DNA of 64,000 bases, from NCBI GenBank assembly GCA_029862005.1, contig JAOTYD010000008.1:4472-68471 (forward strand), given 5' to 3'. Positions within the stretch are counted from its first letter, which is position 1, and every line of letters begins with the position of its first letter. This document shows positions 14,491-41,980 of this stretch, one piece after another. The notes below the pieces were generated by a model. That model did no database searches. It had not been told where the DNA came from and saw only the letters and a list, made by a program, of their open reading frames with translations. The position numbers were made by a program, and so were the translations under genes. This stretch comes from Gammaproteobacteria bacterium (GTDB lineage Bacteria; Pseudomonadota; Gammaproteobacteria; GCA-001735895).

Positions 14491-15626
14491 GTTTTGAAAA
14501 AATCAGTAAGCTGCTGACTGGAGATACCCCGGGGTGCACCACAGAACTGAACTATTTCCACATCGGGCCTGCTGATGCGGACAAAAAAGTCTACCTGCAG
14601 GCGGCCCTGCATGCCGATGAACAGCCTGGAATCCTGATTCTGCATCACCTGTTGCAATTATTACGTGACGCGGATACCGCCGGTGAACTGAATGCGCGCT
14701 TCGTGATTTTCCCGATGGTCAATCCACTCGGTATGGGCGATATCGAATTTGGTCAACACCAGGGCCGTTACAATCGCAGTACCGGGGTGAACCATAATCG
14801 TGCCTGGCCGGAACTTTATGATGCGGTCGGTGAAGCGCTTTTAAGCAAACTCGGTCCTGACGCCGACGAAAATCTCCGGCAGGTCCGCACAGCCTTGCTG
14901 GACTGGGTTGAAACCCTGCCGCAGGTTACCGTGCTGGATCAATGGCGCCGATGTCTAATCGGTGAAGCCTGCGACGCGGACTATGTTTTTGATGTGCATT
15001 GCGACGATGACTCGTTGGTCCATATTTTTACCGTGCCGCAGCTGGCGGAAACTATGCAACAGCTCGCCAACTGGACCGGGGCCGCGGCGACCTTGCTGGC
15101 AGAAGACAGCGGCGGTGGTTCCTTCGACGAGGTTTGGGCCGCTATCTGGTTGCGACTCGCATCCGAGTGCCCGGATAAACCTGTTCCCTTACCGGTCGTT
15201 TCTTGCACGCTGGAATACCGTGGTCGATTCGACACCTTTGACGAACTGAATCGACGAGACGCCGAAAATCTGTACGGTTATTTCCAGGAACAGGGTTTGA
15301 TTACCGGAAAGTGGATCGGTCAAAAACACGAGGCTCCCGCACCCACTGATCTACGTGCGACCGAAATGCTGCGAGCACCGCAAGCAGGATTACTCGCCTA
15401 TTGCGTGGAACTCGGGGACTGGGTCGAAAAGGGCGATCGCATCGCCGACCTGATCCGGCTCGACGGCGAGGGCGTGTTTGTTGAAAGAATCCCGTTGCTT
15501 GCGGGCACTTCTGGCCGGGTCATTTCACGTAAAGTCACGAAGTATGCCTGGGCTAATGCCAATGTTGCCAAGATTGTTGGTACTGAAATCCTCGAATCGC
15601 GCAGCGGCTACCTGCTCAGTGATTAA
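14487..15626 (+). CDS. Succinylglutamate desuccinylase/aspartoacylase (AstE/AspA) family Zn hydrolase
   Basis: LQAALHADEQPG metal-binding block. ATG at 14487 overlaps the SDR stop (ATGA); the long 14403 extension was rejected. Confidence 0.7.
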   Translation: MSFEKISKLLTGDTPGCTTELNYFHIGPADADKKVYLQAALHADEQPGILILHHLLQLLRDADTAGELNARFVIFPMVNPLGMGDIEFGQHQGRYNRSTGVNHNRAWPELYDAVGEALLSKLGPDADENLRQVRTALLDWVETLPQVTVLDQWRRCLIGEACDADYVFDVHCDDDSLVHIFTVPQLAETMQQLANWTGAAATLLAEDSGGGSFDEVWAAIWLRLASECPDKPVPLPVVSCTLEYRGRFDTFDELNRRDAENLYGYFQEQGLITGKWIGQKHEAPAPTDLRATEMLRAPQAGLLAYCVELGDWVEKGDRIADLIRLDGEGVFVERIPLLAGTSGRVISRKVTKYAWANANVAKIVGTEILESRSGYLLSD

Positions 15627-16036
15627 TCCTGGTTTTCCTGGGTCCAGTTGCTCACGGGCAGATGCTCGTCGACATGTAGCCAGCTGACCTTTTCTTCAAG
15701 GAAACTGTGATCCTGCGGTGCCAGTCGCTCGAGATCGTCAAACAGGCCGAGTTGCATGTGAATTTCATCCGGACGGTCGCTGGTTTCGTAGGCAACCGGT
15801 GATCCACAATGCCCGCAGAAACTTCGCGTAACGCCATCATCGGTGGTAAACCGTTTTGGCACTGCCGCGGTGAATATTACTTGTCCTGGCTTAAAACCGG
15901 CAAAGGTCGTCATGACCGAACCACTTTGCCGGCGACAGGATTCGCAATGACAGTGCCCGACCCAGTCTGATTCACCGTCGATTTCGAATTTGACTGCACC
16001 ACAGTAACAGTGGCCGGTTAATTTTTGTTCGTTCAT
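15623..16036 (-). CDS. GFA-family (glutathione-dependent formaldehyde-activating / CENP-V-like) Zn protein
   Basis: CYCGAV ... CHCESCRR ... CGHCGSP cysteine pattern. Confidence 0.75.
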   Translation of the reverse strand: MNEQKLTGHCYCGAVKFEIDGESDWVGHCHCESCRRQSGSVMTTFAGFKPGQVIFTAAVPKRFTTDDGVTRSFCGHCGSPVAYETSDRPDEIHMQLGLFDDLERLAPQDHSFLEEKVSWLHVDEHLPVSNWTQENQD

Positions 16037-16067: not shown

Positions 16068-16493
16068 TTATTTAGAGTTCGATTTCATGACAAAGTCTTC
16101 GAGCTTCTTGTCAATGCCGAGGACATGCAGTTTAAGCCACTTGTATAGAAAATCGGAAAGCGAGATCTGTAGCGACGGGTGCATGCTCGGATCGGTTTCC
16201 AGCATCGCCTCTAGCTCCTCGCGGAAACGGTCATGCGCCTCGATGTGTTCTTCCTGATGGGGATATCCAAGTTCGACCATGTAGGTTTCTTCGAGGATGA
16301 AATGATGCTCGGCGTAAAGCTTGAGGCGAATCAGGATTTCGGGATCGAAGGGTACTTCCTTGATTTTATCGATCAGCTCGAACAAAACCTGGTGCTGCGT
16401 GTCCTGCCAGATGATGTCACTGGTTTTTTGCATTGCGCCGGATTCTGGGAAGATAGTCCGACCACGATAGATGAAAAGCTTGACCTTAGTCAA
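16068..16493 (-). CDS. Bacteriohemerythrin-like protein
   Basis: HHE cation-binding pattern (HF.LEE..M...YP...H...H). An alternative start at 16433 (MQKTSDIIW) is likely. Confidence 0.7.
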   Translation of the reverse strand: MTKVKLFIYRGRTIFPESGAMQKTSDIIWQDTQHQVLFELIDKIKEVPFDPEILIRLKLYAEHHFILEETYMVELGYPHQEEHIEAHDRFREELEAMLETDPSMHPSLQISLSDFLYKWLKLHVLGIDKKLEDFVMKSNSK

Positions 16494-16525: not shown

Positions 16526-17152
16526 TTATTGGGGAGTGGTCGCAGCCGGCGTAAATGACATGATCGAAATCGCTTCGTTGATCAGTAGTTTGGCCTGCTC
16601 ATGGTCGTTATACAAAAACAGCGTGTAGGCGTCGGCCATCTCGTTCCGATGCATGCCGATGATCAGCGCATTGCGATAGTCGGCGGCGAAATCAGGATTG
16701 ATATCGAATGCCGAGGCCGCGGCCCAGTTGGCGTTGAATTTATCCAGCGCCTCCGCCTCGGGAAAAGTACTGGTTGCGGTCTCACCGCCGACTGACAAGC
16801 GATTAGTGATCGATTCGAACAGCAGCGGGAACAGGTGGTTGGGTTCGGGCGCGGCATTATGTGGGTCGTTGTATTCGATCTCGATACGGTTCAGCGGGCG
16901 CACGATAAATCGGACTTCGAGCGCTCCCGATTCATGCCTTAACGCGTATTCGTAGGGCAGAATGGCGTTCGCCTGCGTCGGCTGGTCAATATATTGAGTT
17001 TGCCGATGCATGCGCAATCCAGCTTCCCGCAGCAGCCGATCGAAGGCTGCGCGGGCATCCTTTTCCGCCGCATCTGCGGCCGTGGGTGTGCCCAGGTGAA
17101 TCAGCACCAGCAGGGGCCCGAGCAACGAGGTTATGAATTTTCGGATTGCCAT
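16526..17152 (-). CDS. Secreted hypothetical protein
   Basis: Sec signal peptide MAIRKFITSLLGPLLVLIHLGTPTAADA. Last gene of the cytochrome operon. Confidence 0.5.
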   Translation of the reverse strand: MAIRKFITSLLGPLLVLIHLGTPTAADAAEKDARAAFDRLLREAGLRMHRQTQYIDQPTQANAILPYEYALRHESGALEVRFIVRPLNRIEIEYNDPHNAAPEPNHLFPLLFESITNRLSVGGETATSTFPEAEALDKFNANWAAASAFDINPDFAADYRNALIIGMHRNEMADAYTLFLYNDHEQAKLLINEAISIMSFTPAATTPQ

Positions 17153-17904
17153 TGTTTCAATAGGTCCTCGGCCACCTGCGCCCAACTCGCTTCCGGCGAC
17201 AGGGTCAGAAAGTGTTGCAGGTCTTTAACCGCGCTGTTCCGGTCGCCAAGGGCTTCGTGGGTCGAGGCGCGATTGAAATAGGCTGCCGGCACCTCCGGCT
17301 CGAGCTCGACGCAACGATTGAAATCAACCAGCGCCAGATCGTATTTTTCGGCTTCGAAATGCAGGCTACCGCGATTGAAATAGGCCGCGACAAATTTCTG
17401 GTCCAGCTCGATCGCACTATCCAGATCTCGCCGCGCATCGTCGTTGCGGCCGAACTGGCGATAGGCCTGGGCGCGATTGGTCAGCAGGATCGGGTCGTGC
17501 GGGTTCAATTCGACCGCGCGATTGAGATCGGCTAATGCCAGGCTGGTTTGCTGGTTTTGCAGAAACAGGCTCGAACGAACGCTCAACAGCATTGTATCGT
17601 TGGGGAATTTGCCGAGTGCCTCGTTTAATGTCTCCAGCGCCAGTGGTGCGCGCCCTTCGTCGAGATGCTGTAGCGCTACCTGAACGAGTTTGTCGGGACT
17701 CAGGCTGGCGTGCGGATCTTTCTGCTTATGTGCGCCGGCACCAGTAGTTTGTTGCCGGGGTGATTCGAGAAAAGACTTCATTTCCTCGCTTAACCCGGTT
17801 TCCTGGGCTAGCACAGCTTTATCCACGAGGACTGCGCCTGCAACGAATACCAGCATCCCTGCCGCAAACCACCCGGCAAAATGGGTTGAATCTCTGGCCG
17901 ACAT
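17131..17904 (-). CDS. Membrane-anchored TPR-repeat protein
   Basis: N-terminal TM helix, then at least five TPR units (AYFNRG/AYFNRA repeats). ATG lies 2 nt after the cytochrome stop. Confidence 0.7.
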   Translation of the reverse strand: MSARDSTHFAGWFAAGMLVFVAGAVLVDKAVLAQETGLSEEMKSFLESPRQQTTGAGAHKQKDPHASLSPDKLVQVALQHLDEGRAPLALETLNEALGKFPNDTMLLSVRSSLFLQNQQTSLALADLNRAVELNPHDPILLTNRAQAYRQFGRNDDARRDLDSAIELDQKFVAAYFNRGSLHFEAEKYDLALVDFNRCVELEPEVPAAYFNRASTHEALGDRNSAVKDLQHFLTLSPEASWAQVAEDLLKQWQSENS

Positions 17905-17906
17905 GT

Positions 17907-20285
17907 TTATTCCTTGCTGTAAGCCTGCAGCATCTTGTTCATCAACTCGATATGCTGCGCGTCGGTCAGGCGACCGGGCTCGGACACCTTGGACCACAGA
18001 TCGGCATTGGTCATTTCACGGTGGCAACCCATGCACAGTCCGGTGCGATCCATTGCATCGCGCACCTCTTGTGGCAGCGCGCGCGACAGCGGCCAGTGCG
18101 AGCCTACCGTTTGTGTCTGTTGGCCGTCCTTGATAATCGTGGACAAGTCAAAATCAAGCGCCTCGATTTTGGGTATCTGGATCTTGAAGTTGCTCGGAAT
18201 GGGTTTGCCGGTGCGCTGATCGATCAGGTCCTCAACCACGTTCTCGGTGTAGCGCAGCGAGAACACACCACCGGAGATACCGTAACCCTGGGCTTTCGGA
18301 TTGTTGTGGCAGCTTTCGCAGGTACGGGCCTTGCGCTGCGCCGAGTGTGGCTGCACCGGCGCCATGTCGAGGCCGAGCGGCACGCGCTCCTGTCCCAGTT
18401 CCTTCTGCTCGTCGTAGGCCATTGCGATCTGGTTATGCGCCACAGTGCTACCGTCGCGCGCCCGCACGGTCCAGATAACCTGGCATCCCGGCATCAGCGG
18501 AGTCACGCGACCCTCACCGTTGATGCCGAGCACTGGCTCTTCCCAACGCAGGTAGGAACGGGTTTCGGAGACCTTGCCCGGGCTCTGGATGCCCTTGGTG
18601 CCGAGCGGTGATTCCGCGGTGGAACCATCCGGGTAGCGCAGCGATCCGGAGGCGATCCAGTCGGTGTCTTGCTTCGGCTTGCCGTTTTTATCCGGGCCGT
18701 AGTCGACGTCGACGTGGCAGCCGTAACACTGCGGTACCCAGGACGCGTGGCAGGCGTAACACTCGAGGCTCTCGGCGTGTTTCTTGACGCTTGCCATCGC
18801 CACCATTGCCTGAGAGTTGCGCCAGGCATCATCTTCGGCCAGCTTTTTCAGCAGCGGCACCTTGAAATCGTTGCCGGTAGCCGAGTGCATGATGACCGTA
18901 TCGCCATCCTTGACCACGTTGCCGTAGGGGTTGCCGCGCGCGCTCAGCAGATAACCGTCCTTCTTGTCGTAAACGGTCGCAAATGCCGCGGTCTCCTGCA
19001 GCAGGCTGTTGGCGAGGCCGCGCGGCGAGTTACCAATCGACTTGGCGAATTCTTCGCCGTGACCGAGTGGCAGCTCCCATGGGTACTCTTCCGGCGTTCC
19101 ATGACAGTCCTGGCACTCGACCTCGACCTGCGCCAGCGTAGTGCCCGGGATATTGCCGTCACCGTGCATGTCGATCGTGGTGTGGCAATCCTGGCACAGC
19201 AAGCCGCCTTCAGGGTTTTCCGGACGGCTCTTGATCTGGTGATGCAGGTCGTCGGAAATAAACAGGTAATTCTTGGTATGCAGCTTGGGCTGCTTGCCGC
19301 CGGTCTCGCTGTAGGGTGAGCCGTAGGGGAATTCCATCAGGCCCTGGTAGGTCACGCCGATGCGCTTGCCGCGGTTATGGCACGAATTGCAGGTTTCGAC
19401 CGGGATACCGGAATAGGTCGTGTCGCCGACCGTGACCTTGGATTTACGCGTGGCCTGGATCTGATGGGTCAGCATGTGACCTTTCTGCGTCTTGTCGATG
19501 GTGGGATCACCGCCCTCGTATATGCCTTCGTTACCGTAGGGGATGTGGCAGGAAGAACAGCCCTGGCCGCGATAATCACCGCGCTTTTCACGCCCCTTGA
19601 CGGTGACGTGACAACGCTGGCACTGCTGGCGCTGATAGGTAAAGCCGGCCAGCTTCGGATCTTTCTCGATCTCGTCGACGCTGGGTTGCGGGATTTGCGC
19701 CAGTTCGGTCGGAAACTGTTCCTTATGTGCCGCAATCATGTCCTTCATGTAAGCCTTGTAGGCGTCGGTGCCGACGCTTGGAACAGGTCCGTCGCCGTCC
19801 TTGACGTCGTAATTACCCCACGGCACCTTGTGGTTTTGCACTTCGGGGATGCCCCAGGTGTGCAGATTACCCTGGATTTTACCGGCCTCGGTGTTCATCA
19901 GGGATTTTTCGAGGCGTTCTTCATAGCCGGCATGGCAAGCGCTTTGCCCACAGGTGAACTTGTTAATATCCATCGCGCCAGGGTCGGGGTAGAAGGTTTG
20001 CGGACCCTTGAAGTCGACCAGTGACTGAGGCGATCCTTCGTGTGCCTTGGCTGCGTCGCTGGCGGTGGGATCACCACCGTGGCACATCACGCAGCCGGCG
20101 GTATCGCCATGCACGGCGCTCAGCGAATTGATCAGTTGCAGCATCGCACTCGATTCCTCGCGAATCGACTCGATGCCGTTATGGCAGGCAAGACAGCCCG
20201 AGACAGCCGCAGGCGACGGGCCCGGATTGATCCAGAGAAGCGAAAATAAAATGATTACCCCAAGTGCCTTGCCGTACCGGTCCAT
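17907..20285 (-). CDS. Periplasmic multiheme cytochrome c (11 CXXCH motifs plus one CX4CH)
   Basis: Signal peptide; motifs CLACH, CVMCH, CGQSACH, CQRCH, CSSCH, CNSCH, CQDCH x2, CYACH, CYGCH, CESCH and CMGCH read from the translation. Confidence 0.85.
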   Translation of the reverse strand: MDRYGKALGVIILFSLLWINPGPSPAAVSGCLACHNGIESIREESSAMLQLINSLSAVHGDTAGCVMCHGGDPTASDAAKAHEGSPQSLVDFKGPQTFYPDPGAMDINKFTCGQSACHAGYEERLEKSLMNTEAGKIQGNLHTWGIPEVQNHKVPWGNYDVKDGDGPVPSVGTDAYKAYMKDMIAAHKEQFPTELAQIPQPSVDEIEKDPKLAGFTYQRQQCQRCHVTVKGREKRGDYRGQGCSSCHIPYGNEGIYEGGDPTIDKTQKGHMLTHQIQATRKSKVTVGDTTYSGIPVETCNSCHNRGKRIGVTYQGLMEFPYGSPYSETGGKQPKLHTKNYLFISDDLHHQIKSRPENPEGGLLCQDCHTTIDMHGDGNIPGTTLAQVEVECQDCHGTPEEYPWELPLGHGEEFAKSIGNSPRGLANSLLQETAAFATVYDKKDGYLLSARGNPYGNVVKDGDTVIMHSATGNDFKVPLLKKLAEDDAWRNSQAMVAMASVKKHAESLECYACHASWVPQCYGCHVDVDYGPDKNGKPKQDTDWIASGSLRYPDGSTAESPLGTKGIQSPGKVSETRSYLRWEEPVLGINGEGRVTPLMPGCQVIWTVRARDGSTVAHNQIAMAYDEQKELGQERVPLGLDMAPVQPHSAQRKARTCESCHNNPKAQGYGISGGVFSLRYTENVVEDLIDQRTGKPIPSNFKIQIPKIEALDFDLSTIIKDGQQTQTVGSHWPLSRALPQEVRDAMDRTGLCMGCHREMTNADLWSKVSEPGRLTDAQHIELMNKMLQAYSKE

Positions 20286-20375
20286 TGGTCATCCCCCTTG
20301 TAGCTATTTTTGTTAATTGGTACCCGCGCGCGACGAACGGATAACAGCAGGCTAGAGATTTTTTTTGCCGTCGAC

Positions 20376-20389
20376 TTGACATATGTCAA
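20376..20389. promoter_or_regulatory. FNR/FixK/Anr-type box TTGACATATGTCAA (TTGA-N6-TCAA)
   Basis: Perfect 14-bp palindrome about 95 nt upstream of the cytochrome start codon. Confidence 0.45.
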
Positions 20390-20469
20390 ATCGGAGCCTG
20401 TTTCAATTAAAATGCTTTATAACGGTGCAGAGAGGTAACTTTTGGTGCATGGTAGCGACTTAATCAACA

Positions 20470-20548
20470 AGATCCCCGCTGGTGCGGGGATGACGCCGAG
20501 TCGTTACGTCATTCCCGCCGGATGCGGAACACTTAGCGGGAATCTCAC
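20470..20548. repeat. REP-like hairpin repeat, site B (ATCCCCGC-TGGT-GCGGGGATGACG ... CGTCATTCCCGCCGGATGCGG ... GCGGGAAT)
   Basis: 8-bp stem hairpin plus repeated core motifs. Located between the aminotransferase 3' end and the cytochrome promoter. Confidence 0.45.
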
Positions 20549-20592
20549 AATGGTGATCGTGTATTAAAATCCCGGTTTAAATGGGGATGATT

Positions 20593-21915
20593 TCAGGATT
20601 GATTGAATTCGCGGCAGGCAGCGTCGAGGCCACGCAGGGTTTGTTCGAGATCCTGCGCGGTATGTACGGTGGATACGAAACGTCGCACGCCGGGCAACAC
20701 GTATTGCCCTTGCTTCATCAGCAGGGTATCGAACTTGCGCATTGAAGCCTGGTCGCTGGCGAGTATATCGGCCTGGTTGCGCGGGGTTTTATCCATGAAC
20801 AGGATTTGCCACAGCGAGCCGGTATGCTCGGCGATCGCCGGGATATCGTGCTGGTCGAGGACCTTTTGCGTTTCGCGACAGAGATCATCGGCAAAACCGT
20901 TCATGCGCTTGTAGACGCCGGGTTTGCCGAGTTCGTCGAGCATTGCCATGGTCGCAGCGGCCGCGACGGGGTTACCGTGCAGAGTGCCGTTGAAATAGGT
21001 ATACCCCGGTTGGCCTTTCAGTTTTGGATCGGACAGGCCGATGACGTCCGCGCGTCCGGCGATACAGGACAGGGGACCGCCACCGCCGACGACTTTGCCG
21101 TGGGTCGAGAGATCGGGCTTGACGTCGTACCGTTGCTGGGCGCCGCCGTAGCTCAGACGAAAACCGGTGACGACCTCGTCGAGCACGAACAGGATGTCGT
21201 ATTCATCGCAGATTTTTCGGATGCCATGCAGGAATTCGGGTTCGGCCGGGATGATGCGCTGTACCGGCTCGGCAAAAATGGCGGCGATATCGGCGTGATG
21301 TTCGGCAACAATCTTGCGCAGGGTTTCGAGGTCGTTGTAGGGGCAGACCAGCATCGTTGAAACCGTCGCTTCGGGCTGTCCATAGGAATCTGGCGTGCCC
21401 TGCGGGTAGGCGCCGGTTTCTTTCGGAAAAGTCGACACGATCGCGTAATCGTGGTTACCGTGGTAGGCGCCCTCGAACTTGAGGATCTTGTTACGCCCGG
21501 TAAACGCGCGTGCCAGACGCATCGCGTAGCCAGTTGCTTCCGAGCCAGTGGTTGCGTAGGCGATTTTCTCGGCGCAGGGTATATCGTTAACCAGACGCTC
21601 GGCCAGGTGCACGGCGATATCGTTCAAGGAGCCGAACATGTGCGCACCACGATCCAGCTGCGCCTTGGTGGCTTCGACCACGGCGGGGTGCGAATGTCCA
21701 AGAATCAGTGCGCCGGCACCGCCGACGTAATCGATATACTCGTTGCCGTCGACGTCCCACATGCGCGAACCCTTGCCATGCGAGTAAATCAGGCGAATGT
21801 CATCGGCCAGCGAATAGCTGCCGAGGCCCGAGCCGGGTAAAACACGGTCGGCAATTGCAAACAGGTCGCGTTGCGACATGCTGCCGGGTGATTGTTTAAC
21901 TGCATGTGATGACAT
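20593..21915 (-). CDS. Class III (omega) PLP-dependent aminotransferase
   Basis: GSA-aminomutase/omega-transaminase-like blocks (YVGGAGALILGHSHP, DEVVTGFR). Confidence 0.85.
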   Translation of the reverse strand: MSSHAVKQSPGSMSQRDLFAIADRVLPGSGLGSYSLADDIRLIYSHGKGSRMWDVDGNEYIDYVGGAGALILGHSHPAVVEATKAQLDRGAHMFGSLNDIAVHLAERLVNDIPCAEKIAYATTGSEATGYAMRLARAFTGRNKILKFEGAYHGNHDYAIVSTFPKETGAYPQGTPDSYGQPEATVSTMLVCPYNDLETLRKIVAEHHADIAAIFAEPVQRIIPAEPEFLHGIRKICDEYDILFVLDEVVTGFRLSYGGAQQRYDVKPDLSTHGKVVGGGGPLSCIAGRADVIGLSDPKLKGQPGYTYFNGTLHGNPVAAAATMAMLDELGKPGVYKRMNGFADDLCRETQKVLDQHDIPAIAEHTGSLWQILFMDKTPRNQADILASDQASMRKFDTLLMKQGQYVLPGVRRFVSTVHTAQDLEQTLRGLDAACREFNQS

Positions 21916-21942
21916 GATAGGGACTCCAGAAACCTGCTTGGT

Positions 21943-23040
21943 TTAGCCGACTGCCTCACGCAGCCATTGGTGTAGTTTAAAAATTGACAATTCGTTGTAT
22001 ATCCCGCCCTCGGGATTCAAGACCAGTGGCCCGGGTTTATAACCGCGCGAATTCATCCCGCGCTGAACTTCCCTGACGATATCCAGGTCTTCCTGGAACG
22101 TGGTTTCACGATCGTTCTCGATGACCTTTTGCAGGGTTTCGTCTACCTCGCCATCGTTCGAGTAAAATGTACGGAATACGCGCACGTCATCAACCGCGAG
22201 CGGGCGCCAGGAAAAGCTGTTGACCATCCCGCCGGGATAAAACTGGATCGAAGTGGCCGGCCACAGGTAAAAGCTGCCGTAAGCGGCACCGCTGACGTCA
22301 TACCAGGCATCTTCGCTGTGCGAGGCTTCGGAGGTATGGTGCAACACCTTGATATCTCCGTAAGGCATAATCGAGTAGGTATCGGGATCGATGATGCCCT
22401 TTGCAAACGAGGGATGGCAATTCGGGCAGTGGTAACACTCGTTATAGTTTTCGACCGCGACGAACCAGTTGCAGCCCTCGTCGGCGGTATGGTGGTAGGC
22501 ATACTTGCGTTGCTCGAGGTCAGGGCACAGTTTAAGCATTTCATCGCGAATTCCCGGGTAGGACTTATCCATGCTTGTAGCCTCTGGATCGAGGTTGATT
22601 AACAGGAAACCGAGAAAATTCTCGAGCCTGATTTCGGTCAAGCAGATCTTGGAAGCATTGAAACCGGGCACCTTGTTCGCATGGGGTGCAGCTTTTAACT
22701 GTCCCCGCAGGTCATAAGACCAGGCATGGTAAGGGCAGACCAGTAGCTTTTTATTACCGCTGCCCTCGGCAAGTTTGTGCCCACGATGCTGGCAGACGTT
22801 GTAAAACGCCTTGATCCCGCCCTCGCGGGTATGCGTGATGAGGATGTCCTGGTCGTAGATTTCGAGCGTCAGGAAATCACCGGGTTTACCGACCTGGCTC
22901 GAATGGCAGGCCATCAACCAGTTCTTGTAAAACACTTCGTCAACGATGCGCCGGTAAAGATTGGGATCGGTAAAGTATTTCGCATCGAGTCCCATTACCG
23001 GGACACCATCTGCAACCACTTTCAAATCAGGATTCGTCAT
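21943..23040 (-). CDS. Rieske [2Fe-2S] non-heme iron oxygenase, alpha subunit (GbcA/CntA/Stc2-like N-demethylase or C-N lyase type)
   Basis: Rieske CQHRGH ... CPYHAW and mononuclear iron site NECYHCPNCH. Start placed at MTNPDLK; the ORF could extend to 23103. Confidence 0.8.
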   Translation of the reverse strand: MTNPDLKVVADGVPVMGLDAKYFTDPNLYRRIVDEVFYKNWLMACHSSQVGKPGDFLTLEIYDQDILITHTREGGIKAFYNVCQHRGHKLAEGSGNKKLLVCPYHAWSYDLRGQLKAAPHANKVPGFNASKICLTEIRLENFLGFLLINLDPEATSMDKSYPGIRDEMLKLCPDLEQRKYAYHHTADEGCNWFVAVENYNECYHCPNCHPSFAKGIIDPDTYSIMPYGDIKVLHHTSEASHSEDAWYDVSGAAYGSFYLWPATSIQFYPGGMVNSFSWRPLAVDDVRVFRTFYSNDGEVDETLQKVIENDRETTFQEDLDIVREVQRGMNSRGYKPGPLVLNPEGGIYNELSIFKLHQWLREAVG

Positions 23041-23935
23041 AAATGTTTTCCTCCCAACGCGCGGAATGAAACGCTTCAACGGAGGCGCTTGCCGCGTCGC
23101 CACCGCGTACTACCAGCAGTGCGCACAGGCTTTCGAGCAGTGCGATCACCGCTGAATTGGAATGAAAGAACTGCGGGGTATGGGTTGGGGAGACCAGTCC
23201 CAGGTCGGCCTCGCGGCACAGCGTTGCCGCGTTGCTGTCGGTTACGCCAATGACTTTTGCCCCTTTCCTTTTTGCCAGCTTTACCGCGGCCAGCGTATCG
23301 CGGCGATAAGGCTGGAATGTCATCGCCAGCAGGCAGTCGCGCTCGTCCATGCGAATCAGGTCGTCCGACGGCAGGCTGCCGTGACGTGGTGACAGGATAA
23401 AATGATCGAAGCCCATGCGCGCGACATACCAGAAGTTGTAGGCGAGCGGATAGGCGAGGCCGAGGCCGAGCACGTAAACCCGGCGCGCGTTGATCATCCA
23501 GTCGACCGCGCGCTCGAGATCCTGCACCGATTGCTGCTCGAACATCTTTTCGGTGTTGTCGAGACAGGCCTCGGCCATGCTGCCGAACACCGCGGTGCTG
23601 CCGCCCTCGCGATCCATCTGTTGCAGCCAGCGGACGCGGTCGGGTGACGAGCCGGTACCGCCGCGTACGAAATCACGGAAACGCTCGCGCATGGCTTCGT
23701 AGCCTTCAAATCCCAGGTGACGTGCCAGGCGTACGAAACTGTTCGGATGAACCTCTGCATTCGTCGCCAGCGTGCGCATCGATTGCAGCCCGACTTCATG
23801 TGGATGATCGATGATATAGCGCGCGCACAACTGTAGCTGACCGGGCAGGTTATCGAACTCGGCCAGCAAGCGCTTGAGCACTTCTTCCTGGGACTGCGGC
23901 AATCCAGCTTCGAGAATCTTAAATTTTTGCTGCAT
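23027..23935 (-). CDS. RpiR/MurR-family transcriptional regulator (HTH + SIS domain)
   Basis: HTH_6 region (VGLQSMRTLATNAEVHPNSFVRLARHLGF) and a C-terminal SIS domain. Start at MQQKFKIL. Confidence 0.8.
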   Translation of the reverse strand: MQQKFKILEAGLPQSQEEVLKRLLAEFDNLPGQLQLCARYIIDHPHEVGLQSMRTLATNAEVHPNSFVRLARHLGFEGYEAMRERFRDFVRGGTGSSPDRVRWLQQMDREGGSTAVFGSMAEACLDNTEKMFEQQSVQDLERAVDWMINARRVYVLGLGLAYPLAYNFWYVARMGFDHFILSPRHGSLPSDDLIRMDERDCLLAMTFQPYRRDTLAAVKLAKRKGAKVIGVTDSNAATLCREADLGLVSPTHTPQFFHSNSAVIALLESLCALLVVRGGDAASASVEAFHSARWEENIYDES

Positions 23936-23965
23936 TTGTGACAATTGTGCACTTGATTTAAATAA

Positions 23966-23981
23966 TGATACAAGTGTATCA
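23966..23981. promoter_or_regulatory. Palindrome TGATACA-AG-TGTATCA in the RpiR / DMGDH-like divergent intergenic region; candidate operator
   Basis: Perfect 7-bp arms read directly. An ACAATTGT palindrome is 25 bp away. Confidence 0.4.
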
Positions 23982-24025
23982 TCAGCGGATCTTTCGATGC
24001 AACCAAATTTTATCGGAGTCAGCTG

Positions 24026-26459
24026 GATGCAAAGCAAGGCGAATATCGTCATTATCGGCGGCGGCGTTATGGGCTGTTCGCTTGCCTATCACCTGTGCAA
24101 GGAAGGCGAGACCGATATTGTGCTGCTGGAAAAGGCGGAGTTGACCAGTGGCTCGACCTGGCATGCGGCTGGCCAGATTACGCACTCGGTCAGTCACTAC
24201 AGCCTCGCCAAGATGGCGGCTTATGGCACCGAGCTCTACCCGCGCCTCGAGGACGAGACCGGGCAATCCTGTACCTGGCACGGCAGCGGCAGCCTGCGTA
24301 TCGCCTATACCCAGGACGAAGTCGACTGGATCAAGTACACGCTATCGGTGGGCAAGGGCCTCGGTCACGAAATGGAAATCATCGGGCCTGAGCGTATCGC
24401 CGAGCTGCACCCTTTCTATAATCTCGACGGTGTAATGGCCGCGCTCTATACCCCGCACGATGGGCATGTCGACCCGGCCGGTGTTACCTTTGCGATGGCC
24501 AGGGGGGCACGCATGATGGGTGGTACCGTGATTCGTCAAAATCGGGTCACGGGCATCACACGCACCGGCGATACTTTCGTGGTACACACCGGGCAGGGTG
24601 ACATCGAGGCCGACCGGGTGGTCAACTCGGGCGGTACCTACGCGCGTCAGATCGGGGAGTGGGTGGGGCTGAATTTACCGATCGCAAACATGCTGCACCA
24701 CTACCTGATCACCGACACGGTGCCCGAATTCCAGGCTCTTGAAAAAGAGTTGCCGGTAATTCGGGACGACTCGCAGGTTTCGGGTTATATCCGCATGGAG
24801 CAGAAGTCGGGCCTGATCGGGATTTATGAAAAGGCAAACGCGGCCTCGGTCTGGGATGACGGCACGCCGTGGGAATCCGAGAACGAACTGTTCGAGCCCG
24901 ATTACGACCGCATCATGCCGTGGCTTGAAAACGCGCTCGAGCGCATGCCGGTTCTCGCCGACAAGGGCATCAAGAGCGTCGTGCATGGGGCCATTACCCA
25001 TCCGCCAGACGGCAACATGCTGCTGGGGCCGTCCGGGGTAAAGAATTTCTGGGTTTGCTGTGGTTCGCAGGTCGGCATTGCCTGGGGCCCGGGCGCGGGG
25101 AAGTACCTCGCGCAGTGGATGGTGCACGGTGCCGCGGACGTATCGATGCGCAGTTTCGACCCACGCCGCTTCGGTGCCCGCATCGATGATGAATACCGCG
25201 TCAACAAGGCGAAGGAGGATTACCTGCTGCGCCACGAAATCCCGTTTCCGCATCTGGACCGTCCAGACCTGCGGCCGTCACATTCCAGGCTTTCGCCTCT
25301 CTACGAGATCCTGAAAGACAAGGGAGCAGTTTATGAAGATGTGTATGGCTGGGAACGTCCCTACTGGTTCGCGGTCAATGGCGTCGAGCAAAAGCATATC
25401 GAGAGTTTTCGGCGCAGTGCGTTATTCGACATCATCGGCAACGAGGTACGCGGTATGCGCGCCCACGCCGGTATCGCGGATTTGACCGCGTTTGCCAAGG
25501 TCGAGATCAGTGGCGCCGATGCCGAGGCTTACCTCGACCGAATCCAGTCGAACAAGGTGCCGCAAAAAGAGGGCAGTGTCACGTTGACCTACCTGGTGAT
25601 GGGTAACGGGCGCATCGAGGGCGAGGCCACGATCGTCAAGCTTGGCGATAATCATTACTACATGGTTTACGCCGCGGTACGCGAAGCCGCGCTGTTGAAC
25701 TGGATGCAGGAGGAGGTTCGGGCGGACGAAACGGTCACCTTTAGCAATGTTTCAGAAAACTACGGTGTCATAATGCTGGCCGGTCCGGCGTCACGCAGAA
25801 TTCTCGGCGGATGTACCGACGTCGCCCTCGATAATACAAGTTTCCGCTGGTTATCGACGCAACTTATCACCGTGGCCGGAATAACCGACGTGCGCGCACT
25901 GCGCGTAACTTATACCGGTGAACTCGGTTGGGAACTGCACGTGCCGATGGCGGGTATGCTCGATGTCTACAGCGCGCTGGTTTCGACCTCGCACAGTGAG
26001 GGAATGGTACATATCGGTTCGGCCACGCTGAACGCGGTGCGCATGGAGAAGGCTTATCGTTCCGGGTCGGAAATCACCAATGAAGTCACCATCACCGAGG
26101 CTGACGTGGCGCGTTTCGCGCGGGATGGCGAATTCCAGGGTGCCGAGTATTCACTCAAGTCTGCCGAGCGCTGGGTACTCGCTTATCTCCAGCTCGATGA
26201 GCCCGCTGCGGACGCAGTGCAGTGCGATCCACTGGGTTCCGAGTCGGTATGGCACCGGGGAAAGCCGGTAGGGCAGATCTCGTCCGGTGGCTATGGATAC
26301 GACCAGGGCAAGTATCTTGCCTTTGCCTATATCAGGCCCGAACTGAACCAGGTGGGTAATGAATTCGAAGTGCTGGTCATGGGTGAATCACGCCGCGCCG
26401 TAATCGTCGAGCAATGCGTGTATGATCCACAGAACCTTCTGCCTCGTTCGGAAGAATAA
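24026..26459 (+). CDS. Dimethylglycine/sarcosine dehydrogenase-family FAD-dependent N-demethylase with a folate-binding aminomethyltransferase domain
   Basis: FAD motif IVIIGGGVMGCSLAYHL and C-terminal GcvT-like domain; 810 aa. ATG 9 nt after a GGAG. Confidence 0.85.
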
Positions 26460-40402: not shown

Positions 40403-41980
40403 TTACCAGCGGCCGATGATGATACCCCGGGATTCATCCCGCCCGGGACCCATGGCTGCCAGGTCGTCATACGATGCACCAACGCGGGGTTTCAATCGAC
40501 GACGCGAATCGATCAGCAGTTGCCGCATATCCCTGCGAATTTTACTGTGGTCCAGGTCCTCGCCGAGATCGTTTAACTCATTCGGATCTCTCTGCATATC
40601 GAACAGCTGGGGTCGATACAGGTTATGGTGAATATATTTCCAGCGTTGATCACGGACCATGGTTGCGCGGCAATCATAGGGCGCGATATCGAGCAGGGTT
40701 CGAGGCCCGCGGTCCGAATAATCGATCTCACTTAAAGCGTACTGCCGCCAGTCGGCTGGCGCGCTATGTGATCGTAGTAGCGGCATCAGCGAACATCCTT
40801 CGACTCGCTCGTGGCAGATATTGCCACCAGCGAATTCGATAAACGTCGGCAACAGGTCAATCGCCTCGACCATCTCGTTGCAGACGCTACCGCGGGTTTC
40901 ATCGGCGGTCGCGTTTGGGTTGACGATGATCAACGGGATTTTTACCGAGGCTTCGTGGAACAGGTCTTTTTCTCCAAGCCAGTGATCACCCAGGTATTCA
41001 CCGTGATCACTGGTGAACACCAGCATCGTTTTTTCGAAGATACCGGTTTGTTTCATGTATTCGAACAGGCGCCCCAGTTGATCATCGATCTGTCGAACCA
41101 GGCCCATGTAAACCGGAATAACACGTTCGCGCACATCTTCACGCGCGAAGCTCTCGCTGTATTCCTGCTCCATAAAGGCCCGGTAAACCGGATGCGGGTT
41201 GTGTAACTCCTTGTCGGAACGCACCACAGCCTGGACATCCTCGCCGCTATAGAGGTCGTGATACGGTGCGGGAGCGATCAATGGCCAATGTGGCTTGATA
41301 TAGGAGAGGTGCAGACACCAGGGATTATCGTCCTCTTGCTGTTCCAGGAAATCGATCGCCCGGTTGGTTAAAAAAGTAGTCTCCGAATGCGCTTCGTCAA
41401 CCCGCGACGGGTAGACCGAGTTACGCAGTCTCCAGCCTGAGCGAATATTGCCATCTTTGTCTTCGCCGCTATTGGCGTATTCCTGCCACGGATTTTTGCC
41501 GGCGTAACCGGCGCGATTAAGAAATGTGGTATAGCCGTGGTTGTCAGGCAAACTTCCGTCCGGATATAAACCTTCGTGCAGCTCGAAAGGTTCGTAACCG
41601 CCGCTGCCGGAATGCCACATAGAGTCAGATTCGGATGTAACGCCGAGCGACTCCATTGCTGCGGCACTTTTCCGGTTGTGAGCTTTGCCTACCAATGCGC
41701 TGCGATATCCCGAGGGTCTCAGGTAATCGGCGATCGTCAGTTCGTCCACTCGCATCGGGTCTTCGTTGGCCATTACCCCGTGGCTGGACTGGTAACGCCC
41801 GGTATAAAAACTGGCACGCGACGGGCCGCAGATCGGCGCCTGGCAATATGCATTGTCAAAACGCACACCGCGTGCGGCCAGTGAATCGATGTTCGGAGTA
41901 TGGAGTTTCAGGTGCCCGTAGCAGGACAGGTAGTCCCACCGTAGCTGGTCGCACATGATGAACAGAATATTTCGCGGCAT
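40403..41980 (-). CDS. Cys-type sulfatase (arylsulfatase / choline-sulfatase-like)
   Basis: N-terminal LFIMCDQLRWD and formylglycine motif CGPSRASFYTGR. Confidence 0.85.
   Translation of the reverse strand: MPRNILFIMCDQLRWDYLSCYGHLKLHTPNIDSLAARGVRFDNAYCQAPICGPSRASFYTGRYQSSHGVMANEDPMRVDELTIADYLRPSGYRSALVGKAHNRKSAAAMESLGVTSESDSMWHSGSGGYEPFELHEGLYPDGSLPDNHGYTTFLNRAGYAGKNPWQEYANSGEDKDGNIRSGWRLRNSVYPSRVDEAHSETTFLTNRAIDFLEQQEDDNPWCLHLSYIKPHWPLIAPAPYHDLYSGEDVQAVVRSDKELHNPHPVYRAFMEQEYSESFAREDVRERVIPVYMGLVRQIDDQLGRLFEYMKQTGIFEKTMLVFTSDHGEYLGDHWLGEKDLFHEASVKIPLIIVNPNATADETRGSVCNEMVEAIDLLPTFIEFAGGNICHERVEGCSLMPLLRSHSAPADWRQYALSEIDYSDRGPRTLLDIAPYDCRATMVRDQRWKYIHHNLYRPQLFDMQRDPNELNDLGEDLDHSKIRRDMRQLLIDSRRRLKPRVGASYDDLAAMGPGRDESRGIIIGRW

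Follow-up and report, generated by a model that had tools for sequence, protein, structure and literature searches.

A putatively FNR-controlled three-gene module of a 12-haem cytochrome, a TPR protein and a secreted protein in Gammaproteobacteria and beyond

We analysed a 64,000-nt stretch of a gammaproteobacterial genome (assembly GCA_029862005.1, contig JAOTYD010000008.1, positions 4,472 to 68,471; hereafter, the window) and found that three adjacent genes on its minus strand, encoding a 12-haem c-type cytochrome, a tetratricopeptide repeat (TPR) protein and a signal-peptide protein that we call SEC, recur together in other bacteria and are often preceded by a conserved palindrome of the FNR class. 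Judged from their arrangement, the three genes form one translationally coupled unit that is inherited as such across phyla. We believe that this unit specifies a multihaem oxidoreductase, most likely a terminal reductase, that is induced by oxygen limitation and kept on the periplasmic side of the inner membrane by two accessory subunits, a reading to which we give slightly less than even confidence. The identity of the regulator, the formation of a complex, the direction of electron flow and catalysis itself are what we infer from the data presented below.

The three-gene unit and its FNR-type box

The cytochrome gene (17907..20285, minus strand) encodes a protein of 792 aa with a Sec signal peptide, 11 CXXCH motifs and one CX4CH motif (CGQSACH), as had been described in an earlier note on this DNA. 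The ATG of the TPR gene (17131..17904, minus strand; 257 aa) lies at 17904, only 2 nt past the TAA of the cytochrome gene, and is provided with an AAGGA Shine-Dalgarno sequence, whereas the SEC gene (16526..17152, minus strand; 208 aa) starts 22 nt inside the 3' end of the TPR gene. Both the spacing and the gene order agree with the earlier description, and the three-gene operon proposed there is supported by this close coupling and by the recurrence of the triad among the loci profiled. For this profiling, 80 genome loci encoding relatives of the cytochrome were fetched, and tblastn placed the TPR gene directly after the cytochrome gene in 66 of them and the SEC gene after that in 58. When loci positive for TPR and negative for SEC were checked (6/8), the contig was found to end within about 1.4 kb. 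Moreover, four look-ups anchored on SEC, including one in the cultured Thiolapillus brandeum, whose triad is at about 3,086,785-3,090,738 of AP012273.1, all returned the order cytochrome-TPR-SEC with a 4-nt overlap between the last two genes.

Triad carriers were found in the Gamma-, Alpha- and Betaproteobacteria and in Thermaceae. The gammaproteobacterial ones include the Olavius algarvensis Gamma3 symbiont (87% identity), Sedimenticola, Chromatiales, Thiotrichales and Ruthturnera, and further carriers are Hyphomicrobiales and other Alphaproteobacteria, a Burkholderiales metagenome-assembled genome (MAG) and Thermaceae. No compositional anomaly pointing to horizontal transfer of the triad was observed. 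Two MAGs carry two triad copies each, namely ES_Gamma_071 (L012 and L014, 91% identity) and MFD03551.bin.3.65 (L065 and L069, about 95%), and these duplicates are either paralogues or the result of strain heterogeneity in the bins. The cytochrome open reading frames (ORFs) in L065 and L069 look interrupted.

The palindrome TTGACATATGTCAA (TTGA-N6-TCAA) lies at 20376..20389 and ends 91 nt 5' of the cytochrome ATG, where the earlier note had put it at about 95 nt. Within the window the motif is not significant, with three sites where 0.99 are expected, a count reached in 13 of 100 shuffles. Across the related loci, 75 of which had enough upstream sequence to be scanned, it was present 5' of the cytochrome in 39, mostly at -94 to -153 (range, -85 to -249), and its half-sites were kept while the six spacer bases were free to vary. 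By comparison, the background was 81 occurrences in the 1.2 Mb of fetched loci, that is, 0.027 per 400 nt with the true sites counted in. This enrichment argues strongly that the box is a conserved regulatory footprint of the FNR/ANR/DNR class, and the assignment made in the earlier note is upheld in this respect.

A hexamer read by eye, TAGCCT (20349..20354, minus strand), is located 28.5 nt from the centre of the box. This distance fits the geometry of a class II FNR promoter, and the hexamer may represent the -10 element of such a promoter for the triad, even if a sigma-70 scan did not pick it as -10. The perfect half-sites, the spacing of the candidate -10 and the conservation across loci are features shared with the class II promoters of FNR, ANR, DNR and FixK. 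What differs is that no FNR-family regulator gene was found within the window or beside the triad, and that about 15 related loci (including L036, L041, L042, L065, L067, L068 and L069) instead or also carry genes for a PAS sensor kinase and an NtrC-type sigma-54 activator directly 5' of the cytochrome, which suggests additional or alternative signal-specific regulation in that subclade. The box alone does not separate the O2-sensing FNR/ANR from the NO-sensing DNR/NnrR. The regulator could be FNR itself rather than the ANR, DNR or NnrR proteins of the same box, and the triad is probably induced by low oxygen.

The cytochrome and its relatives

The CXXCH motifs of the window cytochrome are at Cys31, 65, 222, 243, 299, 364, 391, 509, 520, 656 and 751, and CGQSACH occupies residues 112-118. 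The close pair CYACH and CYGCH, which the earlier note had separated by seven residues, is separated by six. Among the aligned full-length homologues of greatest divergence (about 38% identity), ten of the 12 motifs are invariant; the ninth (Cys520) is missing from five of these proteins and the twelfth (Cys751) from one. The CX4CH of the window clade corresponds to a 2-residue insertion, and the site reads CGQCH or CGMCH in other homologues. Since a plain CXXCH is found at the same position in many homologues, we consider CX4CH to be a genuine twelfth haem site and not a special one. The earlier view of an exported cytochrome with about 12 haems thus agrees with the 12 predicted sites and the Sec signal peptide. 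Outside the motifs, residues H82, H274, H348, H374, H503, H647, M130 and M497 are invariant; H730 and H778 are invariant in a 52-sequence set, and C601 is mostly conserved and lost in divergent members. The conserved non-haem stretches include RGN at 450-452 and LRWEEPVLGINGEGR at 579-593, and a C-terminal, beta-rich non-haem domain of about 260 aa is conserved across phyla. Several Pfam multihaem models scored above their cutoffs, and the 12 motifs, the export signal and the conserved candidate distal ligands together mark the predicted product as a c-type multihaem cytochrome. An AlphaFold2 model, for which the 52-sequence alignment spanning two clades was used as input, was of moderate quality (pLDDT 71, pTM 0.75) and poor at residues 296-374.

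This cytochrome family is large and unusually conserved, and has no characterised member, dedicated hidden Markov model (HMM) or solved structure. At 90% identity, 2,475 clusters pass E 1e-3, and the best 120 of them all show 71% identity or more and have lengths of about 790-800 aa. When representatives at 50% identity were searched exhaustively, 1,212 matches were obtained, 208 of them with E < 1e-30, and 149 matching stretches were found in a one-genome-per-species collection. The sources name the members only generically ("cytochrome C", "multiheme c-type cytochrome"). No PDB chain matched the cytochrome by sequence, and the family profile gave only marginal matches to ActA of alternative complex III. 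We found no description of the family or of the triad in the full-text literature searched, the coverage of which is incomplete, so that an earlier description is possible.

The top family match was NCBIfam ExtM (NF040943; 205 bits, E 1.7e-60), which aligned residues 203-529 with profile positions 130-406 of 599 and has an equivalog cutoff of 800 bits. Because more distant representatives also match this model (120-330 bits), the sequences point to a broad ExtM-like superfamily, with an ExtM-like continuum joining both families, in which the window cytochrome would be a distant homologue of ExtM and not a member of it. ExtM (GSU2935) is a 12-haem cytochrome of Geobacter that is encoded together with Rieske and cytochrome b genes and is present in all Geobacter species, without a demonstrated function (PMC5877670). 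The window protein resembles the ExtM of the Geobacter sulfurreducens extHIJKLMNOPQS cluster in being a predicted 12-haem periplasmic c-type cytochrome; it differs in being about 190 aa longer and in having the conserved beta-rich C-terminal domain, and no Rieske, cytochrome b or ExtN genes accompany the cytochrome in the window or in the related loci.

A second match was to the Pfam MtrC/MtrF pentahaem domain (PF22113), which covers residues 219-397 (profile positions 6-165 of 176) with 37.4 bits against a cutoff of 30. This one domain is the likeness to domains II/IV of the outer-surface decahaem cytochromes MtrC, MtrF and OmcA; the combination of two pentahaem domains alternating with two beta-barrel domains, a lipoprotein signal and a score reaching the TIGR03507 cutoff, which defines that group, was not found. 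The remaining candidates were likewise rejected. With regard to NrfA, the window cytochrome contains no CXXCK motif and has no NrfA/c552 match in Pfam or NCBIfam. The octahaem tetrathionate reductase (OTR) of Shewanella oneidensis (PDB 1sp3) has eight haems against 12, and it was matched neither in NCBIfam and Pfam, nor in the PDB by phmmer or hmmsearch, nor by Foldseek; we mention OTR below as a lead and not as a classification. Neither an HMM match of the hydroxylamine oxidoreductase (HAO) type nor the octahaem core of HAO was found. As for NapC/NirT/CymA, there was no Pfam or NCBIfam match to the tetrahaem NapC/NirT domain and the N-terminus is a signal peptide and not a transmembrane (TM) helix; where distant homologues of the cytochrome do have a TM helix it is C-terminal, unlike the N-terminal helix of NapC/NirT/CymA. 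In sum, HMM, PDB-sequence and fold searches agree with the earlier note, which had placed the cytochrome outside NrfA, OTR, HAO, MtrA/C and NapC. The uet cluster of Tenderiales, which combines the undecahaem UetJ with an NrfG-like TPR protein, is a different system. One protein of the representative search (P0136, 1061 aa) fuses the family to N-terminal CcoP-like/class I cytochrome c domains, an arrangement that suggests electron exchange with soluble c-type cytochromes.

Partner proteins, anchoring and possible function

The window TPR protein, with its repeats at about residues 100-250, begins with a 19-aa hydrophobic segment that could be either an uncleaved anchor or a long signal peptide. 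A lipobox was present in 20 of 52 orthologues, 12 of which have Asp at +2. The earlier description of this protein as membrane-anchored is accordingly consistent with the window copy and the lipobox orthologues, but does not extend to the many orthologues that look like soluble periplasmic proteins. Only generic TPR models matched it, and there was no match to the NrfG or CcmI HMMs. The linker of the protein carries an invariant motif at residues 59-67 (H59/P63-H64/L67), and the window copy reads KDPHASLSP there, with a His-containing DPH.

The SEC protein was modelled from a 40-sequence alignment with high confidence (pLDDT 87, pTM 0.81), and we are confident that the predicted fold is PsbP/Mog1/DcrB-like. 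By sequence it belongs to an orphan family: no Pfam, NCBIfam or PDB sequence match was obtained, even with a profile, and its 301 clusters are all unnamed. The proteins that it resembles in fold (PsbP/CyanoP/PnsL1, Mog1, DcrB, LpqN and MTC28) are merely 5-11% identical to it, and SEC is set apart from them by an invariant DPH...PxPN motif of its own (R85-P86...Y94-x-D96-P97-H98...P102-x-P104-N105). This region (residues 85-105) includes YNDPHNAAPEPNH, with a second invariant His-containing DPH, and the DPH motifs of the two partners could be ligands or interface residues. Among the loci inspected, the SEC gene occurs only next to the triad cytochrome. Since several PsbP/Mog1-fold proteins are extrinsic subunits or adaptors at the outer face of membranes, a scaffold role would fit SEC better than a catalytic one. 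As far as our searches show, no multihaem cytochrome paired with a PsbP-like extrinsic protein has been described.

The distribution of membrane anchors gives a further hint about the partners. Distant homologues from Campylobacterota, Aquificota and Bacteroidota have 12 plain CXXCH motifs and neither a TPR nor a SEC partner, and such stand-alone homologues (45-48% identity) were found in Bacteroidales, Hydrogenothermaceae, Hydrogenimonas and Helicobacteraceae. Their C-terminus consists of a hydrophobic helix and a succeeding basic tail, by all appearances a type I anchor that would keep the haem domain periplasmic at the inner membrane. The six loci with a C-terminal TM helix all lack TPR and SEC, and every locus with TPR or SEC lacks that helix. 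Because the helix and the partners are mutually exclusive, we regard TPR and SEC as possible tether substitutes. To the extent of our searches, both the triad combination and this swap of a C-terminal anchor for two partners are new, the parts themselves being of known kinds. The stand-alone homologues in Nitratiruptor, Persephonella and a 2.25-Mb contig have no conserved neighbours, the genes around them being unrelated. In the last of these (L084, 1-7511) the homologue directly adjoins a gene for a phage integrase and a series of small ORFs without annotation, a context consistent with horizontal mobility of the cytochrome gene.

On the basis of these observations, the terminal reductase that we favour could work as follows. 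A CRP/FNR-family regulator of the FNR, ANR or DNR type, which we take to be encoded elsewhere in the genome, would bind TTGA-N6-TCAA and activate the class II promoter. The three coupled products would be exported by Sec, and the Ccm system would attach 12 haems to the cytochrome, which would act as the redox-active subunit, related to ExtM and equipped with the extra conserved beta-rich C-terminal domain. On the periplasmic side of the inner membrane, the cytochrome would exchange electrons with a quinol-linked pool of c-type cytochromes, and electrons would then pass to a periplasmic acceptor, most likely in the manner of a terminal reductase such as the octaheme tetrathionate reductase. The TPR protein (TM- or lipid-anchored) and the PsbP-like protein would be extrinsic scaffold or tether subunits, taking the place of the C-terminal TM helix of the stand-alone homologues.

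Several observations weigh against this reductase. Five loci (L049, L055, L066, L070 and L079) have neither the C-terminal helix nor the partners, and many TPR orthologues have cleavable-looking signal peptides, so that anchoring is not universal. The conserved His and Met residues are numerous enough to make each of the 12 haems six-coordinate, so that an open catalytic haem is no more than possible. ExtM, the closest relative with a name, belongs to the operon of a bc-type complex (ext/Cbc5); it is uncharacterised and mostly treated as an electron carrier. Finally, a gene of the Porin_5 family (about 400 aa, C-terminal ...YKF, outer-membrane beta-barrel) is a neighbour of the cytochrome gene in nine loci, a hint of a link to the outer membrane. 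It was found in three arrangements, divergent upstream in L012, L014, L015, L073 and L077, as a fourth gene downstream in L040, L043 and L044, and directly upstream in L055; one of these loci, from a Poribacteria MAG, encodes the cytochrome as a lipoprotein and has neither TPR nor SEC. The last three points, together with the pentahaem-domain match, also speak for the main alternative reading, in which the cytochrome is a non-catalytic relay or capacitor, that is, a 12-haem wire like ExtM linking quinol oxidoreductases of the inner membrane to periplasmic or outer-membrane partners and possibly to a porin conduit for extracellular electron transfer. We entertain this as a possibility without expecting it to be the case. 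A wire would not be expected to show so high a conservation across phyla, including in the non-haem beta-rich domain; in most loci neither a porin nor a second cytochrome is found close by, and the lack of conserved neighbours around the stand-alone homologues does not favour it either. Besides, an inner-membrane tether formed by a C-terminal TM helix and a basic tail is not suggestive of surface exposure.

The terminal reductase has also to be compared with an enzyme working in the oxidative direction, which at low oxygen would take electrons from a reduced inorganic compound, for instance hydroxylamine or a sulfur intermediate, and pass them to the c-type cytochrome pool. The carriers are mostly sulfur-oxidising chemolithotrophs (the Olavius Gamma3 symbiont, Thiosymbion, Sedimenticola, Thiolapillus, Chromatiales, Campylobacterota and Hydrogenothermaceae), and the CcoP-like fusion is compatible with donation to high-potential cytochromes. 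The free Cys601 is mostly conserved, and His/Cys-ligated haems occur in TsdA, SoxA and DsrJ. We nevertheless consider an oxidative enzyme improbable: the loss of this cysteine in divergent members argues against it, as does the occurrence of the family in Bacteroidales, Thermaceae, Hyphomicrobiales, Poribacteria and Nitrospinaceae; the loci inspected showed no linked sox, dsr or hao genes, and induction of the FNR type is more typical of reductive pathways.

A role of TPR and SEC as maturation factors of the CX4CH haem, similar to NrfG or CcmI, and not as subunits of the working complex, is very improbable and in our opinion largely refuted. TPR proteins such as NrfG and CcmI do assist haem attachment at non-standard sites, the window cytochrome does have one CX4CH, and ccm genes were found near the triad in about six loci. 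However, TPR and SEC accompany equally often cytochromes with a plain CGQCH (L035-37, L041, L042, L048, L054, L056, L059, L060, L067 and L068), and copies with CX4CH occur without TPR or SEC in L049, L055, L070 and L079. The presence of the partners is therefore independent of CX4CH versus CXXCH, which argues against a dedicated haem-lyase role, and a haem-lyase adaptor of the NrfG/CcmI type was rejected on the same grounds; the missing HMM match of the TPR protein also counts against it. In addition, System I handles CX4CH in cytochromes c3.

In the boldest reading, the triad is a hitherto unrecognised periplasmic enzyme of three subunits, in which the 12-haem cytochrome is the catalytic one, the PsbP-like protein is extrinsic and the TPR protein serves as the tether; this appears to us unlikely. 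If it were true, the triad would carry out an anaerobic respiratory or detoxifying reaction that has no assigned enzyme in marine sulfur-oxidisers and vent chemolithotrophs, for example as a new terminal reductase acting on an oxyanion of sulfur, nitrogen, selenium or iodine, and the C-terminally anchored stand-alone form of Campylobacterota and Aquificota would be a related single-subunit version. Whatever its function, the module belongs to ecologically important bacteria (symbionts of gutless worms and nematodes, Sedimenticola, Thiolapillus, and the Campylobacterota and Aquificota of vents) that live at oxic-anoxic interfaces, where the repertoire of electron acceptors is incompletely understood. 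The conserved FNR-type box offers a testable handle on when the module is used, and cultured carriers such as Thiolapillus brandeum, Nitratiruptor sp. YY09-18, Persephonella hydrogeniphila and Hydrogenimonas thermophila make biochemistry feasible.

Neighbouring genes and other features of the window

The neighbours were surveyed by all-against-all clustering of the ORFs from the 80 loci, and nothing beyond the triad was universal. Only subsets of loci carried Porin_5 (9 loci), the sensor kinase and sigma-54 activator genes (15), ccm genes (about six) or GGDEF genes, and a cytochrome b561-like gene stood beside the triad in two closely related loci only. Downstream of the triad, the window contains, as the earlier note had pointed out, a bacteriohemerythrin gene (16068..16433, minus strand; 121 aa, ATG at 16433) and a gene for a GFA-family (CENP-V/GFA) protein (15623..16036, minus strand; 137 aa). 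A second FNR-type box, TTGACCTTAGTCAA (16480..16493), is located 47-60 nt 5' of the hemerythrin ATG and is kept in seven related loci (L003, L004, L006, L007, L010, L030 and L062). Because this box of its own is conserved upstream, the hemerythrin gene is probably a separate FNR-activated unit and not simply a part of the operon. The TTG start proposed by the ORF finder at 16493 falls inside the box and is probably wrong, and we took the ATG at 16433 as the real start. The linkage of hemerythrin to the triad is confined to the closest clade (cytochrome at least 86% identical), and that of the GFA gene is loose and clade-specific.

Upstream of the triad, the region 20593-26459 encodes, as read from sequence alone, a class III aminotransferase, a Rieske oxygenase, an RpiR/SIS regulator and an FAD/GcvT-type dehydrogenase, and looks like a catabolic cluster of the glycine-betaine/dimethylglycine type; it is syntenic with the triad in the closest MAGs only. 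Between the aminotransferase gene and the box, an AT-rich spacer of 307 nt holds a GC-rich hairpin, ATCCCCGC-ACCA-GCGGGGAT (20472..20491, minus strand), as well as a longer imperfect inverted repeat (gggaatgacg...cgtcatcccc), both within 20440-20560. These structures could represent an insulating terminator, the T-tail of the hairpin being weak, or a REP-like element. The third TTGA-N6-TCAA of the window, at 40920-40933, lies inside a sulfatase-like ORF (40403-41980, minus strand) and is probably a chance match.

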